A stretch of DNA of 64,000 bases from Nitrospirota bacterium (GTDB lineage: Bacteria > Nitrospirota > UBA9217). A program made the position numbers and the translations under genes. Location: contig CAVVOB010000022.1 in NCBI GenBank assembly GCA_963749655.1, positions 64,001 to 128,000 of the forward strand, in the 5' to 3' direction. This document shows positions 54,787 through 63,151 of the stretch, in pieces. Below the pieces are notes generated by a model. It was not told the origin of the DNA and searched no databases. It saw only the letters and a list, made by a program, of their open reading frames with translations. Position 1 is the stretch's first letter. Each line of letters begins with the position of its first letter.

Positions 54787-56994
54787 CTACCATGTTTCCG
54801 TTCCGTGGCAGCTGGGACTGCAGGTCGCGCCGTTGAAGTTGACGGAGCTCTTTATCGTCGCCGAAGCGGTCGCTTCCGATATCGGCGCAGTCAGAGACGT
54901 AAAGTGGCTCCCTGCCAGCTTCGTCGTATCGTGGCAGTCAGTGCACGCCCTTTGTTCACTGTAAACGTGACGCCGATGCTGGCCCGAGTAGTAGCTGTTG
55001 TTCTCCGGGCTGCCTGATGAGGAGCCGAGGACGTGGCATGCGGTGCACTGCGAGTTCACATCGATGGTTCCGGTGAGCCAGGACGGAGTGGAACCCGGTG
55101 TCGACTGGGGGGGATTCTGACCGGCCTGGGTCGATGTCTGCGTTCTTGATCCTCCGTGGCAGGAGATGTTCGAGCAGGTGTAGGTCGATGCATTGTACGA
55201 GGCCGTTCCTGATTTCGCATTATAGGTCGCGTCGAGGATCACATCAACGACATTGTTGAAATGATATGCTGTGCCCGAACCTGCGCCCTGATGGCAGGTG
55301 CCGCAGACAACAGACGAGTTGACGTTTGCATGAGGAGCGTGGCTGCCGGCAACGTTGGGGAAGGTTGTCCCGGACGGCGGCGTCCCGTGGCAGGACGCGC
55401 AGTCGCTTGTATTGATCGGCCAGGAGTGGCACGAAGCACATGACGGGCCGCTCGAGGAGACGCCGGTCAGATTTGTTCCATGACAATAGACGTTCGAACA
55501 GGAAGTCGTTCCGTTTGCGTAGGCATAGGCACTGTGGTTCCGCTGTACATCGGGGTACCAGCTGAGAAGGTGGACCTTGGTCTGGTCCTGCATATGGCAG
55601 CTCTTGCAGGCCACATGGGTGCCGCCGCCAAGGTAGTCCGTGCCGTGGCATTTCTGGCAGACCGTGTTGTCTGCAAGCGCCGATGTCTTATGGTCCGCGA
55701 CGACCCAAGCTGCCGCAGGATGGTCCAGGCCCGGTCCATTATGGCAGCTGTAACAACTCGTGCCGGTTGTTCCTCCCTGGTAGTCCGAGCCGTGGCAGGT
55801 TTTGCAGACGGAGAAATCCTGTTCCGCACTGACGCCGTGTTGTGTCGGGTCGGACCAGCCGGCAGGGTGGCCGACCTGAGCATGACAGAGCGTGCTGTTG
55901 AAACACCCGGGAGCGGTCCCTGCTGCCGCGGGCGGAGAAGGCTGCACCGAGGAGTTTGCGCCGTTCGTATGACAGAGCGCGCAGACCGTGGCGTTTCCTT
56001 CATTCGTGGTCGTATGGGTATAGGTGCCGTCGCGCCAGGGCTTGGGCGGATGGGGCGCGTTCACGCCGTGGCAGGAGGAACAGGCCGTGTTGGCAATGCC
56101 GCCGGAGAAGTCGGTGCCGTGGCACTCCTGGCATGAAGCAAAGCCGTTTGCCTGGGATTTTGCGCTGGCTCCGTGCTGGGCCGGGTCGGACCAGCCCGCA
56201 GCGTGGCCCACCGTTCCGTGGCAGAGCGTGTTGTTAAAACATCCGGGAGCGGTCCTTGCTGCCGCGGCCGGAGAAGGCTGCACCGAGGAGTTCGCGCCGT
56301 TCGTATGGCAGAGCGCGCAGACCGTGGCGTTCCCTTCATTCGTGGTCGTATGGGTATAGGTGCTGTCGCGCCAGGGCGCGGCCGGATGGGGCGCGTTCAC
56401 GCCGTGGCAGGAGGAACAGGCCGTGTTGGCAATGCCGCCGGAGAAGTCGGTGCCGTGGCACTCCTGGCATGAAGCAAAGCCGTTTGCCTGGGATTTTGCG
56501 CTGGCGCCGTGCTGGGCCGGGTCGGACCAGCCCGCAGCGTGGCCCACTGTCCCGTGGCAGAGCGTGTTGTTGAAACATCCGGGAGCGGTCCCTGCTGCCG
56601 CGGCCGGAGAAGGCTGCACCGAGGAATTCGCGCCGTTCGTATGGCAGAGCGCGCAGATCGAGGCATTCCCTTCGTCTGTCGATGTGTGCGTGTACGTGCT
56701 GCTGTCGCGCCAGGGCTTGGGCGGATGGGGCGCATTCACGCCGTGGCAGGAAGAACAGGCCGTATCGGCCATGCCGCCGGAGAAGTCGGAGCCATGGCAC
56801 TCCTGGCATGAAGAAAAGCCGTCGGCTTTCTTGGCCGCAGCGCCATGGGTACCTGCGCCGGACCAGCCTGCCGCATGGCGGCCCGTTGCGGGATCGATGA
56901 CCCTGTCTTTGCTTGCCGTGCTGCACGCCGCAGCGAGCATGATCAGGCCCGCACAGGACATGATGAGAACAACTATCCTCGTTCTGGAAAACAT
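54787..56994 (-). CDS. Multiheme c-type cytochrome lipoprotein (CxxCH / CxxxxCH type)
   Basis: Lipobox LAAAC. I count 18 CxxCH, 3 CX5CH, 2 CX4CH and 1 CX3CH in 735 aa. Confidence 0.92.
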   Translation of the reverse strand: MFSRTRIVVLIMSCAGLIMLAAACSTASKDRVIDPATGRHAAGWSGAGTHGAAAKKADGFSSCQECHGSDFSGGMADTACSSCHGVNAPHPPKPWRDSSTYTHTSTDEGNASICALCHTNGANSSVQPSPAAAAGTAPGCFNNTLCHGTVGHAAGWSDPAQHGASAKSQANGFASCQECHGTDFSGGIANTACSSCHGVNAPHPAAPWRDSTYTHTTTNEGNATVCALCHTNGANSSVQPSPAAAARTAPGCFNNTLCHGTVGHAAGWSDPAQHGASAKSQANGFASCQECHGTDFSGGIANTACSSCHGVNAPHPPKPWRDGTYTHTTTNEGNATVCALCHTNGANSSVQPSPPAAAGTAPGCFNSTLCHAQVGHPAGWSDPTQHGVSAEQDFSVCKTCHGSDYQGGTTGTSCYSCHNGPGLDHPAAAWVVADHKTSALADNTVCQKCHGTDYLGGGTHVACKSCHMQDQTKVHLLSWYPDVQRNHSAYAYANGTTSCSNVYCHGTNLTGVSSSGPSCASCHSWPINTSDCASCHGTPPSGTTFPNVAGSHAPHANVNSSVVCGTCHQGAGSGTAYHFNNVVDVILDATYNAKSGTASYNASTYTCSNISCHGGSRTQTSTQAGQNPPQSTPGSTPSWLTGTIDVNSQCTACHVLGSSSGSPENNSYYSGQHRRHVYSEQRACTDCHDTTKLAGSHFTSLTAPISEATASATIKSSVNFNGATCSPSCHGTETW
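55860..56870 (-). repeat. Three tandem ~336-bp (112-aa) intragenic repeats
   Basis: The unit H.AGWS..CQECH..CSSCH..CALCH..CFNNTLCH recurs with near-identical DNA at a 336-bp period. Boundaries approximate. Confidence 0.9.
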
Positions 56995-57104: not shown

Positions 57105-57325
57105 TAGCTAATTGTGATTTGAACGTCGATTTTTGGCCGAAAGGATTACGGCTTCAGGTCCGGTCCGTTTTCATTGTTCGGGAAAATATGTACGTCAGGA
57201 AACAGATGAGAAAAGACTATTCTGCTTCGGCGGGTACATTTTAACGAGAGTTGAAGTCCTTTCGGGATGGGGGCGCTCTGTGGCTGCGAGAAAGGTGATT
57301 GGATGCCGGTTTTATCCGGGAAATG

Positions 57326-57361
57326 CTTCGCGTCTCCGTCCGGGAGCCCGGAGACGCGAAG
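57326..57361 (-). terminator. Strong hairpin after the Ig-repeat gene
   Basis: CTTCGCGTCTCCG...CGGAGACGCGAAG 13-bp stem with only a short U-tract. Confidence 0.5.
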
Positions 57362-57382
57362 TGGGATCATCATTCACTCCGA

Positions 57383-59362
57383 CTACAATGTTTTCCATAC
57401 CTCGTTCGAATAGCTGCTTTCCTGGCCGGAAATGTCAAGGTCGGTCACGGCGAAATAATACGTTCCCGCAGAGAGGTTCAAAGTATAGGTGACTACCGAC
57501 ACCCCGGGATTGGGAACGTCCACGGTTTTGTTGTAGCTCAGAGACGACGTTCCATAGTAGATCCGGTAGCTGCTGACGGCTGTCAGCGAACTCAGGGTTG
57601 ACCCGTCCACATAGGTCGTCGGAGCGTCCCAGGTCAGCGTCAGCGCACTGGTTCCTGCCACGACGGTGAGACCGGTGGTTCCTGAAACGCCGCCTGATGT
57701 CGCCGTGATAGAGGCGGATCCGGCAGCTACTCCGGAAGCAAGTCCCTTGGAACCTGAAGCGTTGCTGATGGTCGCAACGCCGGTGCTGGAAGAGCTCCAA
57801 GTCGCTGAGTTCGTCAGGACCTGCGTAGAACCGTCCGTATACGCGCCCGTTGCAACGAACTGCTGTGTCGTTCCCGCGCCGATGCTTGGATTGGACGGTG
57901 TGACGGCGATGGAGACCAGGGTCGCCGAGGTCACCGCGAGAGTGGTCGAGCCCAAGACGCTGCCCGACGTTGCCGTTATCGTGGTTGAGCCGACTGCCAC
58001 GCTGGTTGCCGCGCCCCGGGCGCCTGTTGCATTGCTGATGGTTGCAATACCGGTGCTGGAAGAGCTCCAGGTCACCGAATTCGTCAGTACCTGCGTAGAA
58101 CCGTCGGTGTAGGTGCCGGTGGCTGCGAACTGCTGTGCCGTTCCCTTGGCGATGCTGGGATTGGACGGCGTCACCGCGATGGATATGAGTGTCGCCGAGG
58201 TCACCGTGAGGGCGGCTGAACCAGAAATGCTGCCCGACGATGCCGCGACTGTGGTTGAGCCGACAGCCAGGGAAGTTGCCGCGCCCTGAGAACCTGCAGC
58301 ATTGCTGACGGTCGCAACTGCCTGATTTGAAGATTCCCAAGCTACCGAGTTCGTAAGGGTCTGCGTGGACCCGTCGGAGTAGGTGCCAATGGCAACGAAC
58401 TGCTGTGCTGTTCCCTTGGCGATGCTGGGGCTGGACGGTGTGACAGCGATGGAGACCAGGGTCGCCGAGGTCACCGTGAGGGTGGTCGAGCCTGAGATGC
58501 CGCCTGATGTTGCCGAGATCGTGGTGGAGCCGACTGCCACAGATGTTACTGCGCCCCGGGAACCTGAATCGTTGCTGATCGATGCAACGCCGGTGCTGGA
58601 AGAGCTCCACGACACGCCTTCCGTCAGATCCTGCACCGAGTTGTCCGAGAAAGTGCCGGTGGCGATAAACTGCTGGGCGGTTCCCTTGGCAATACTGGGA
58701 TTGGTCGGTGTGACCGAGATGGAGGCCAGGGTCACCGAGGTTACTGTCAGGGTGGCCGAGGCCGAGATATTTTCGGACGCTGCCGTGATCGTTGTTGAAC
58801 CGGCGCTCACAGCCGTGGCCAGTCCGCTGCTGACCGTTGCTACGGCCTGGCTCGAAGAGGTCCATACTGCTGATGCCGTCAAGTCCTGCGTCGTACCGTC
58901 TGAAAAAGTGCCGACGGCCGTAAATCTCTGCGTCGTACCCTTGGCGATGGATCCCCCTGTGGGAGTGACTGCGATGGAGACCAGCGTTGCATCGGTTACG
59001 CTGACCGTGGTATCAGCCTCAATGTCGCCCGAGGAGGCCTTGATGGTGGCAGAGCCGGATTTTTTTCCCTTTACGTGGCCCGGGCTGTCGATCTCGGCTG
59101 TCGATGAGTCGGAGGAAGTCCAGGTGACGTACTTGGTCAGGTCCCGCGTCGACTTGTCGGAGTACACGCCCGTGGCAACGAACTGTTGATCGGTGTTTTT
59201 TGCCAACGCCGCATTGACCGGGGTAATAGAAATGGAGGCGAGCGTCGCTCCGTCCCCGGTTCCCTTTGACGGCCCCTGGGGGCTGCCGGCGCCGCACGCT
59301 GCCAGGCCTGCTGCAATCAGCGAAACCGTCAGTAGAAAGAAGCCCGTCCTTGACTTGATCAT
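57383..59362 (-). CDS. Surface lipoprotein with six Big_2 (Lig-like) Ig repeats and a C-terminal FN3-like domain
   Basis: Lipobox LAAC, six L.SI.VTP..SIAKGT.QQF.A.G.YSDGS..LT..V.WSSS units, C-terminal LTWDAP..YRIYYG..YYFAVT..ESSYSNEV. GAGGAGG Shine-Dalgarno before the ATG at 59362. Confidence 0.9.
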   Translation of the reverse strand: MIKSRTGFFLLTVSLIAAGLAACGAGSPQGPSKGTGDGATLASISITPVNAALAKNTDQQFVATGVYSDKSTRDLTKYVTWTSSDSSTAEIDSPGHVKGKKSGSATIKASSGDIEADTTVSVTDATLVSIAVTPTGGSIAKGTTQRFTAVGTFSDGTTQDLTASAVWTSSSQAVATVSSGLATAVSAGSTTITAASENISASATLTVTSVTLASISVTPTNPSIAKGTAQQFIATGTFSDNSVQDLTEGVSWSSSSTGVASISNDSGSRGAVTSVAVGSTTISATSGGISGSTTLTVTSATLVSIAVTPSSPSIAKGTAQQFVAIGTYSDGSTQTLTNSVAWESSNQAVATVSNAAGSQGAATSLAVGSTTVAASSGSISGSAALTVTSATLISIAVTPSNPSIAKGTAQQFAATGTYTDGSTQVLTNSVTWSSSSTGIATISNATGARGAATSVAVGSTTITATSGSVLGSTTLAVTSATLVSIAVTPSNPSIGAGTTQQFVATGAYTDGSTQVLTNSATWSSSSTGVATISNASGSKGLASGVAAGSASITATSGGVSGTTGLTVVAGTSALTLTWDAPTTYVDGSTLSSLTAVSSYRIYYGTSSLSYNKTVDVPNPGVSVVTYTLNLSAGTYYFAVTDLDISGQESSYSNEVWKTL

Positions 59363-59406
59363 GTTGTTTTCCTCCTCTGCTAGAGCGATTAATAAACCGG
59401 TGATCA

Positions 59407-59498
59407 TCTCTGGCGGCTCGGCGGACATTGGAGCTTGATGCTCGTTAGTCCCGTTGCTCTGCGTCCCAGGGTTTCCCCTGGTTTGCTCTGAGCAGAGA
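59407..59498 (-). ncRNA. GEMM-I (c-di-GMP-I family) riboswitch, A20 variant predicted to bind 3',3'-cGAMP
   Basis: Minus strand UCUCUG CUCAG A GCAAACC AGGG GAAA CCCU GG GACGC AGAGC AACGGGACUAAC GAGC AUCAA GCUC CAAUGUCCGCCGAGCCG C CAGAGA. P1, P2 with GAAA tetraloop, P3 and the GACGC-A core are all present. Confidence 0.88.
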
Positions 59499-59563
59499 AG
59501 GTCTCGAACATGGATTTCAGCGCCGGCTATCACCAGGGCCCATGCCCTTCATTCATTGGCCGC

Positions 59564-60962: not shown

Positions 60963-61112
60963 TCGGCTACGCTCCGGGTCTTCCGCAGCTCGACGGCCGG
61001 CAATCGCGGGCATGCGCAGCAGGCGAAGAACGGCCGGAACGATCCACTGTAATAATCCAATTCATTTTACGACGTGACCTCCGGAAGAGGACTTGTCAAG
61101 GAAAGGTGCTTC

Positions 61113-62018
61113 ATGTTCGGTGTGCTTCGCAGCCTGAGCGAGGGGCTGGCCAAAACCAGGAAGAACCTCTCGGACAAAATCGGCAATTTACTGCTCGGCG
61201 AAAAGATCGATGAAGCTTTTCTCGATGAGCTGGAAGAGGCGTTGATCACGGCCGATGTCGGCGTTGAGACTGCTTCCCTGGTGCTGAAAGACCTGAAGGA
61301 GCGCTTCAAACGGAACGAGCTTTCCACGAGGGCGCAGGTGGCGGACCGATTGAAGCAGCTTCTCTTCCAGATTGTGTCGCCGAATTCCCGCGCCTTCTCT
61401 CTTCCCGCATCACCCGCTGTCGTGCTTGTCGTGGGGGTGAACGGAACGGGAAAAACAACGACCATCGGCAAGCTGGCTCATCGGCTCCGGGCGGAGGGGA
61501 AAAAGGTCATGCTCGCCGCAGGCGACACCTTCCGCGCCGCCGCTTCGGAGCAACTTTCGATCTGGGGAGAGCGGGCCGGCATCCCGGTGATCAAGCACCA
61601 GGAGGGGGCCGATCCCGGGGCCGTGGTGTTCGATGCCGTTACCGCCGCGAAAACGCGCGGTATCGAGGTCCTTATCGTCGACACTGCAGGCCGGCTTCAC
61701 ACGAAATCAAACCTCATGGAAGAGCTGAAGAAAGTAAAGCGCATTCTGGCGCGCGAACTTCCCGGAGCCCCCCACGAAACGCTGCTGGTCCTCGACGGCA
61801 ACACCGGTCAGAATGCACTGGTCCAGGCGAAAATGTTTCATGATGCCGTGGGCGTCACCGGCATCGTGCTGACCAAGCTGGACGGAACCTCCAAGGGAGG
61901 CATCATCTTTGCCATCAGCAAAGAGCTCTCCATTCCGGTAAAGTTCATCGGCATCGGAGAAGCGGTAGGGGATCTGAGGAGCTTTGATCCCAAGGAGTTT
62001 GTCGACGCGCTGTTTTAG
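61113..62018 (+). CDS. ftsY: Signal recognition particle receptor FtsY
   Basis: [27 protein letters not shown] and [10 protein letters not shown]. Confidence 0.96.
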
Positions 62019-62041: not shown

Positions 62042-62338
62042 ATGTCTAGCGAACGCGTTCAGGTTGAAATATACGGCCAGGTTTACAGCATCAAGGGCGA
62101 GGGCGATGCCGCCCGGATCCGTGAACTCGCCGCCTATATCGACAGCCGGATGAAAGAGGTCGAGAAGGGGACGGGGACCGTCGATCCCCATCGGGTCGCA
62201 ATTCTGGCCGCGCTGACGATCGCTGACGAGTATTACCGGCTGCGTGAACGATTCGGAGATCTGGCATTGTCCGCCGATCTCGCCGCAAAACGCATGCTCG
62301 CCCTTTTGGAAGCAGTGGAGGAGCCCGATAAAACATAG
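62042..62338 (+). CDS. zapA: Cell division protein ZapA
   Basis: V.I.GQ.Y.IKG....I..LA.YID..M..V......RVAILAAL.IADE, followed by 6S RNA. Confidence 0.9.
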   Translation: MSSERVQVEIYGQVYSIKGEGDAARIRELAAYIDSRMKEVEKGTGTVDPHRVAILAALTIADEYYRLRERFGDLALSADLAAKRMLALLEAVEEPDKT

Positions 62339-62496
62339 TTTGCCGCAGTGAACACGACGGGGTATTTTTAGGGTATGTCATGTGTCGAGTGAGTTGATTA
62401 TTCTTATTTTTTAATGTTTTGCCTTTGCCCACCCATCTTTTTATCCTTGCCATTTTTCTTCGATTCTGGTATATACTAATTAACATCATAAGATAG

Positions 62497-62673
62497 TCCC
62501 CTGCTTTGCGCGTGATGGATATAACTTGTTCCTCGTGAAAAAAAAATAACGGGAGCTGAAATGTGAAAAGGGTGTGCATGCCCAGATTAGACTGGGAAGC
62601 CTGAACTTTTCACCGAGGCACCCACCTGGTAAATACCAGGAATCAAGTCTATCTACACGGCAAAAGCGGGGGA
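62497..62673 (+). ncRNA. ssrS: 6S RNA
   Basis: About 177-nt long hairpin with complementary ends (TCCCCTGCTTT...AAAGCGGGGGA) and a central A-rich bubble. It lies downstream of zapA, its usual position, with TTGCCA...TATACT promoter elements upstream. Confidence 0.85.
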
Positions 62674-63151
62674 TTTTTTTACTCCCTGATTTTTGCACAA
62701 TTGTGTATAGCAACTCATGGCGTACCTGGCCATGATGCCTCAAATAGAGTGAATCAGCGCTAGCCAGCCAGAAGGGAGCAGTCAGTTTTAAGGAAGGCTC
62801 CGGCGCTTGTGATAGTGTAAATGTAACAGCGGAAGAGGAGCACAAGGATGACAGGATCATCCAAGGGCTCCTTCCCGCGCGAAGATTGATTACCAGTAGG
62901 GCAACGTATTGATGCCATGGGGAAATTTACTGTTGTACCATATAAGTACCATGAGGGAACGGGATTGAATTCACCGGGGGAGCAGTACTATCCAGCGCAG
63001 CTGAACTTTGGACAGGGAAACTCCCTTAAAAATAAACCGGTTGCCCCGCGCCTTCTCATCATCACCCCAGGGCCGAGCTTGCCTGATCCGGTCTGACCCC
63101 CTTCGCCCCCTATCACAGGTAGTCCGCGTAAGCCCTCCCGACGTATTTACC

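Follow-up and report, generated by a model that had tools for sequence, protein, structure and literature searches.

A conserved A20 subclass of GEMM-I riboswitches in Nitrospirota with 3',3'-cGAMP as its putative ligand

Which second messenger is read by a GEMM-I riboswitch that carries an adenine in place of the ligand-contacting guanine, and whose host belongs to the Nitrospirota? The question is raised by an RNA encoded on the minus strand of the DNA analysed here, a 64,000-nucleotide stretch of one contig (hereafter, the window) from a genome of 4.27 Mb in 39 contigs that is 86.6% complete. The RNA has A at the position equivalent to G20 of the Vc2 aptamer, and the original prediction, made from the letters alone, took this base as a signature of 3',3'-cGAMP sensing. 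In Vc2, the base found here contacts the ligand at its alpha base; what G20, A47 and C92 do is described in passages of PMC5888326 and PMC6140456.

The GEMM-I assignment held. When the whole window was run through cmscan, RF01051 (c-di-GMP-I) was matched at 59409-59497 on the minus strand with 59.3 bits and an E value of 4.7e-9, over the entire model (positions 1-87 of 87) and above its gathering score of 35 bits; the same match had an E value of 7.3e-11 in a scan of the whole genome, and 14 control genomes gave 0 matches. The window holds one further Rfam match above the gathering score (two in all), a 6S RNA (RF00013, 100.6 bits) at 62495-62676 on the plus strand, immediately preceded by genes for ZapA (62042-62338) and an FtsY-like protein (61074-62018). 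The bases named in the original prediction (G14, C17, A18, G19, A20, G21 and C22), the GAAA loop on P2 and the 6-bp P1 all agreed with our reading, and A20 together with the retained A47 and C92 equivalents could be read in the RF01051 alignment (Table 1). The Vc2 numbers G14-G19 are assigned to J1/2 bases 59493-59488 and are assumed here to be correct; the internal loop of P3 presumably resembles a tetraloop receptor, to which the GAAA loop may dock. A47 is the intercalating adenine (PMC5888326, in part), and C92 is Watson-Crick paired to the ligand's beta guanine (in passages that include PMC5888326 and PMC6140456).

Table 1. Features of the riboswitch locus, with two candidate synthase genes found elsewhere in the same genome (G000)
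Feature	Position	Strand	Description
GEMM-I aptamer including 6-bp P1	59407..59498	-	RF01051; member of the A20 'class 2' subclass
P1, 6 bp	59498-59493 with 59412-59407	-	Sequence reading
J1/2	G(59493) C U C(59490) A(59489) G(59488) A(59487) G(59486) C(59485)	-	Direct alignment reading
A at the Vc2 G20 position	59487	-	RF01051 model position 11, the base just 5' of the P2-opening G-C pair; T on the plus strand
P2 hairpin	59466..59481	-	GAAA tetraloop 59475-59472; changes on both sides in 4/6 pairs (28-sequence alignment)
A47 equivalent	59460	-	RF01051 alignment; adjacent base 59459 is G, Rfam consensus is A
C92 equivalent	59413	-	RF01051 alignment and structure line of the related RF03167 model
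Alternative (OFF) helix, 5' strand (predicted)	59485..59501	-	Pre-P1 bases, P1 5' strand, J1/2, A20 and G21-C22; pairs with 59371-59386 in the minimum free energy fold
Alternative helix, 3' strand (predicted)	59371..59386	-	Contains the Shine-Dalgarno sequence GGAGG, 59375-59371
Big_2 lipoprotein, predicted regulated gene	57383..59362	-	ATG at 59362; 659 aa; signal peptide, lipobox-like L-A-A-C; Pfam Big_2 x6, E 1.4e-66
Multihaem cytochrome c	54787..56994	-	735 aa; 18 CxxCH; Pfam Cytochrome_C7 and Cytochrom_c3_2
P0004	C14:23695-24948		GAF-GGDEF; Ser at GacA-348, Tyr at GacA-304, GGEEF; outside the window
P0003	C19:4721-6223		G-Y-A-N-G-S, Ser348, GGDDF; Pfam 4HB_MCP_1, HAMP and GGDEF only; no EAL or HD-GYP

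As the original prediction itself cautioned, the specificity call depends on a single base, 59487, and public sequence data agree with it. No difference at this base was listed in the Logan contigs of four runs (two RNA and two apparently DNA, from three studies; bin 59486-59506), whose cover reaches to about 59533, and one DNA contig over 59150-59500 had just three differing letters, none of them at 59487. Because these are contigs, and one of the runs is possibly the source sample, this amounts to weak independent support; the conservation of A20 across the subclass described below is the stronger support for the base. A metatranscriptome contig (59445-59533; run X2, depth 60.8) was seen to end at 59533, about 35 nt upstream of P1, in what appear to be sequencing-adapter letters. 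This is a weak hint of an RNA end, given that contigs cannot show transcript ends.

Seven GEMM-I RNAs, all above the cut-off, are encoded in the genome, five with G20 and two with A20; the second A20 RNA is a paralogue encoded beyond the window on this contig. Both A20 RNAs have a Vc2-like J1/2, a GAAA loop, a G after the A47 equivalent, and a C, not U, opposite the A that closes P3. We use the name class 2 for the A20 type with a Vc2-like J1/2 and a GAAA loop, and it accounts for 11 of the 35 aptamers taken from this genome and 20 relatives. An alignment of these 11 sequences (A1) had compensatory changes in 10 of the 22 predicted pairs. The covariance model built from A1 (R1) gave its training members 89-104 bits (103.9 bits for the window RNA, which is one of them) and one non-training member 70.6 bits, while the other GEMM-I RNAs compared reached at most 64.8 bits. 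At 70 bits or more, R1 found 62 matches in 38 of 151 Nitrospirota genomes: the window genome and 21 of 27 others in its own family (f1), 4 of 6 in f2, 3 of 3 in f6, 7 of 11 in f8, 1 of 3 in f13 and the single f14 genome. At this threshold there was none in f3, f5, f10 (27 genomes), f11, f16 or f17. A20 was invariant in the 11 training sequences and in all 27 non-training class-2 sequences (38 in total, from six families), and the A47 and C92 equivalents were invariant in the class-2 alignments A1 and A3. The sole G20 match in the same R1 search was a different RNA, with 51.5 bits.

The predicted structure was also examined in a 28-sequence alignment, which was fitted to the model and leans towards the structure. 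Changes on both sides were found in 12 of 22 pairs, a number equalled by 0 of 500 shuffles, and 97.9% of cells were paired as against 31-48% when the partners were slid. The three-helix architecture of P1, P2 and P3 is thus backed by covariation. A chance RF01051 match, or a decayed remnant with no regulatory role, is ruled out for practical purposes by the RF01051 score and the covariation in 10/22 and 12/22 pairs: an E value of 4.7e-9 is hardly compatible with chance, 97.9% of cells pair and the covariation exceeds that of every shuffle, and the place of class 2 before orthologous Big_2 lipoprotein genes has been kept in several genomes. Judging from these comparisons, the riboswitch is real, A20 is under selection, and class 2 is a separate A20 lineage that some of the Nitrospirota have conserved. 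That the window genome encodes both G20 and A20 RNAs argues for two distinct signals.

We compared class 2 with the GEMM-I RNAs that have been characterized. With Vc2 it shares the GAAA scaffold, C17, A18 and G19 of J1/2, the G21-C22 pair, A47 and C92, where the Vc2 J1/2 letters are assumed to be right. Vc2, however, has G20 and is specific for c-di-GMP, whereas A is the natural and invariant state of class 2. The closest tested analogue of the class-2 pocket, which it resembles, is the engineered Vc2 G20A. This RNA binds both c-di-GMP and cGAMP, a protonated adenine being what lets it and natural A20 RNAs take up c-di-GMP; several natural A20 RNAs, Cbe 1-2 among them, are bispecific (passages of PMC6140456). 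Support for cGAMP sensing from outside Geobacter comes from the A variant of D. acetoxidans, whose aptamer binds cGAMP markedly better and c-di-GMP only slightly less well (PMC9481103, in part). The D. acetoxidans and Cbe 1-2 RNAs, which are likened to class 2 here by description and not by sequence, are natural GEMM-I RNAs that have A at the specificity position beside G20 relatives, as class 2 does. The published A20 RNAs considered here range from about 1200-1600-fold selective to bispecific. Class 2 could be a working GEMM-I riboswitch that responds mainly to c-di-GMP, or to c-di-GMP and cGAMP alike, with A20 tuning affinity and not the identity of the signal. The protonated-adenine mode and the barely lowered c-di-GMP affinity of the D. 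acetoxidans variant would fit such a response, but a change of A to G was never seen in the 38 class-2 sequences of six families, even though G20 riboswitches are present in the same genomes. We hold a response of this kind to be unlikely but worth serious consideration, and return to it below with the GGDEF proteins.

As regards the label GEMM-Ib in the original prediction, A20 is present, but the RNA differs in sequence from the validated Geobacter type, which has AAU-A-CU before P2 and a GCGA-like loop where class 2 has its Vc2-like J1/2 and GAAA loop; such likeness in sequence does not by itself define GEMM-Ib. Nor did the Geobacter-type deltaproteobacterial setting apply, the host being a member of the Nitrospirota. 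Geobacter GEMM-Ib RNAs (Gs1761/pgcA and Gm0970) and class 2 have in common the GEMM-I fold, A at the G20 position and a retained C92; both lie upstream of surface lipoprotein and cytochrome genes, with class 2 also found before pilM, and the hosts of both encode Ser-type GGDEF proteins. With R1, however, the classical Geobacter type scores 20-31 bits and class 2 scores 70.6 bits or more. No class-2 RNA was found in 41 Geobacteraceae-family genomes, in which the best R1 score was 64.8 bits, and no class-2 J1/2 occurred in the best 30 loci of these genomes. GEMM-I RNAs lay upstream of pilM at 7 of 30 Geobacteraceae-family loci with E <= 0.001, and the four alignments shown were all of the AAU-A-CU A20 type. 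We take this type to be the validated GEMM-Ib because the Gs1761 residue numbers (A11, A14 and A41) fit it and because of the pilM context, and not from published sequences. The AAU-A-CU type, partly in tandem, is also present in a genome from the genus to which the window genome belongs and in two more Nitrospirota genomes, one of them in the window's family; it was absent from the seven GEMM-I RNAs of the window genome itself.

Beside A20, class 2 departs from the Rfam consensus at several conserved positions, for example in having G beside A47 (in the majority of members) and C, not U, opposite the P3-closing A. These departures could mean that the subclass senses some other nucleotide signal, such as c-di-AMP or another mixed cyclic dinucleotide, and in vitro each of the three cyclic dinucleotides can be a product of Hypr enzymes (PMC6456294, in part). 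However, the same two departures occur in Geobacteraceae-family GEMM-I RNAs, and the C92 equivalent, which pairs with guanine, does not vary in class 2. A signal of this sort therefore seems improbable.

The leader of the window riboswitch was folded to examine how ligand binding might be coupled to expression. In its minimum free energy fold (-58.7 kcal/mol; z = -4.32 against shuffles for a 161-nt version), the Shine-Dalgarno (SD) sequence is sequestered, whereas a fold forced to form P1 and the G21-C22 pairs had -50.6 kcal/mol. Tertiary contacts together with tight ligand binding could, we infer, pay for the gap of about 8 kcal/mol. Of 11 related leaders that were folded, nine had a recognizable SD sequence, and in five of these nine (four beyond the window leader) it was paired with the P1 5' strand and the bases just before it; three of the nine had a terminator involving the P1 3' strand, and the remaining one paired the SD sequence elsewhere in the aptamer. 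Terminators that compete with the P1 3' strand are carried by the paralogue and several other class-2 members. Since every platform competes with P1, all of them predict ON switches. At the window locus, the absence of ligand would allow 59485-59501 to pair with 59371-59386, burying the SD sequence and keeping translation off; ligand binding would favour P1 and the binding pocket, free the SD sequence and turn translation on. The physiological ligand in this scheme would most likely be 3',3'-cGAMP, although an A20 RNA may accept c-di-GMP as well. The predicted translational ON logic draws on a thermodynamic calculation and on the recurrence of the pairing in orthologues, and it is the logic reported for the Geobacter cGAMP riboswitches, which are ON switches; the platforms differ in that the window riboswitch would act by SD sequestration and Geobacter GEMM-Ib acts by a terminator.

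The aptamer lies in the 5' leader of the Big_2 lipoprotein gene on the same strand, with 44 nt between its 3' end and the ATG at 59362. The C-terminal domain of the lipoprotein was read as FN3-like, a reading that no Pfam match backed. A scan for sigma-70 promoters found no minus-strand site upstream of the aptamer. The multihaem cytochrome gene follows after a gap of 388 nt, in which a weak promoter-like site (57104-57076, minus strand) was present and no terminator-like site was found on the minus strand; the riboswitch is thus possibly also in the leader of the cytochrome gene through a shared transcript. A 75-aa ATG open reading frame with no obvious features (57146-57373, minus strand) lies inside this gap. 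None of seven loci found with the cytochrome as query had a class-2 RNA (the only match scored 23.9 bits), and the cytochrome link therefore appears, as far as seen, to be specific to the window locus. The genes downstream of other class-2 RNAs encode orthologous Big_2 lipoproteins, a small lipoprotein, proteins that we read as FN3-like, and a membrane protein, and in two f6 genomes (G017 and G075) pilM follows. The G20 riboswitches of the window genome precede other kinds of gene, for example one for a response regulator with a GGDEF domain.

Two loci with more than one aptamer were observed. In a genome of the same genus (G002), class-2 RNAs at C1:471945-472037 and C1:478744-478836, about 7 kb apart, each precede a Big_2 lipoprotein gene. 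In genome G101 (locus L213, 1501-1593 and 2001-2085), a class-2 aptamer on the minus strand is preceded, at a distance of about 400 nt and in the same orientation, by a G20-type GEMM-I RNA, and the pair may be a two-signal tandem arrangement.

A cGAMP riboswitch calls for a cGAMP synthase, and the original prediction pointed to GGDEF proteins with the Hypr Asp-to-Ser substitution. The window genome had 31 GGDEF matches, and the region of GacA residue 348 was readable in 25 of them, with Asp in 20, Asn in 3 and Ser in 2 (residues 348 and 304 are numbered after PMC6456294, known to us in part). The search therefore did yield proteins with the substitution, P0004 and P0003 (Table 1), but their motifs are GGEEF and GGDDF, and no GacA-type Ser/GGDEF protein was found in this 86.6% complete genome or in its family at E <= 1e-60. 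A CD-NTase was also considered as the synthase and set aside, there being no PF18144 match in the same 86.6% complete genome. Two further GGDEF domains of the genome have Asn at GacA-348 together with GGEEF (C35:83708-84178 and C30:349721-350191). Four others occur in two or three adjacent pieces (C28:108469-108940, C18:117259-117730, C2:9226-9695 and C12:5867-6342), of which the first lies downstream of a G20 riboswitch; these splits may be frameshifts or assembly errors, with the pieces presumably in different frames.

The best PDB match of P0004 was a fusion of G. metallireducens GacA (6d9m, E 3e-32), in which its Ser aligned with Ser348 and its N-Y-R with the N-Y-R that includes Tyr304. 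Both P0004 and GacA (GSU1658 / Gmet_1914) are GAF-GGDEF proteins, but P0004 has GGEEF and not GGDEF, and it is without the Rec domain. It therefore has the Ser/Thr at 348 and the non-Arg residue at 304 that characterize Hypr enzymes, but not the GGDE[F/Y] motif. The family of P0004 was matched in 27 of 27 f1 genomes, and every row examined, 16 from the genus and 23 from f1, kept Ser and GGEEF (39 rows of 56-76% identity; loci L177-L192 and L236-L259); N-Y-R could be read in 21 of these 23 f1 rows, a count that covers f1 rows only. According to passages of PMC6456294, the combination of Ser348 and GGEEF was inactive in GacA and WspR mutants, natural Ser/Thr enzymes in a 2014 data set had only GGDE[F/Y], and a 'Goldilocks' model holds that Asp is required at the third position of GGDE[F/Y] when Ser348 is present. 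In a tree of these proteins, a canonical Nitrospirota Ser/GGDEF clade (100/99) and an f1 GGEEF clade (100/100) were recovered. In this tree P0004 fell outside the canonical Hypr clade, a tentative placement given the weak support of the deep branches (80/74 and lower).

P0003, with its N-terminal four-helix bundle and HAMP domain and its Ser/GGDDF, looks like GSU1937, one of the sources of cGAMP in G. sulfurreducens; the two were compared by description only, from part of PMC8835794. Relatives of P0003 in f1 had Ser with GGDD[F/Y] in 20 of 29 rows examined, whereas seven were an Asn paralogue and two were unread. From their sequences we infer that P0004 and P0003 are candidates for the synthase.

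Outside f1, GAF-GGDEF proteins of the canonical Ser/GGDE[F/Y] form were found in 11/11 genomes of f8, 5/6 of f2, 3/3 of f6, 3/3 of f13 and 1/1 of f14. This form was shown in 28 of 29 rows examined across the phylum, the remaining, unread row being the only one from f14. Such proteins are common outside f1; of the GGDEF domains examined, 1 of 18 in G019 and 1 of 15 in G017 had this form. The reported share of Hypr GGDEFs among GGDEF domains is 0.17% (PMC9140294, in part); by our own reading, the N-terminus of the G017 protein is Rec-like. All six class-2 families therefore encode a GAF-GGDEF protein with Ser at GacA-348, in the GGEEF form in f1 and in the canonical form in the others. Five families (f9, f10, f11, f16 and f17; 69 genomes) had neither class 2 nor a canonical Ser/GGDEF protein at E <= 1e-60, and in f3, f4, f7 and f15 a Ser/GGDEF protein was present without class 2; this family-level co-occurrence is not phylogenetically independent.

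The GGDEF proteins bear in two ways on a riboswitch that answers mainly, or equally well, to c-di-GMP. Most of the readable GGDEF domains of the window genome (20/25) are Asp-type, and the Ser candidate found throughout f1 has the GGEEF motif that is predicted to be inactive, as such a riboswitch would have it; against this, class 2 co-occurs with Ser-type GGDEFs at the family level. Taken together, a cGAMP-responsive ON switch is favoured by the presence of both G20 and A20 RNAs in one genome, by a gene context like that seen in Geobacter and by the association of class 2 with Ser-type GGDEFs at the level of families. It is made less certain by the likeness of the pocket to Vc2 G20A, by the bispecificity of several A20 RNAs found in nature and by the unusual motifs in f1's only Ser-type enzymes. 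On balance, we think it fairly probable that the window RNA is a working GEMM-I ON switch with 3',3'-cGAMP as its physiological ligand, a plausible ligand preference that is derived from one base and its comparative context. A bolder proposal is that some of the Nitrospirota have a cGAMP pathway of their own for surface and electron-transfer proteins, in which a cGAMP-selective, Vc2-like A20 class would be served in f1 by the GAF-GGDEF protein with Tyr304, Ser348 and GGEEF, active as a synthase despite the 'Goldilocks' rule, by which substrate is not bound when Ser348 is combined with GGEEF. This we put forward as a speculation that is considerably more doubtful than a cGAMP-responsive switch as such.

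That GEMM-I has A20 variants, and that these are linked to cGAMP, was known before, and what appears to be new is class 2 of the Nitrospirota. No full-text article on Nitrospirae that dealt with cGAMP and a riboswitch was found, a search combining Hypr, GGDEF and Nitrospir returned a single, unrelated review, and the articles found for GEMM-Ib since 2019 did not, by title or abstract, concern Nitrospirota; in the literature searchable here, no cGAMP pathway is described for this phylum. With a pocket like that of the bispecific Vc2 G20A, class 2 offers a natural test of the selectivity of A20 aptamers. The Ser/GGEEF family would likewise be a natural exception, the combination of Ser348 and GGEEF having been published as inactive and absent from nature (passages of PMC6456294), and its conservation makes it a natural test of the Goldilocks model of substrate recognition by GGDEF enzymes. 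If class 2 does sense cGAMP, Geobacter would not be alone in using riboswitches to place its surface lipoproteins, pili and multihaem cytochromes under the control of cGAMP; anaerobic members of the Nitrospirota, a phylum sparsely represented in culture, would do so too.
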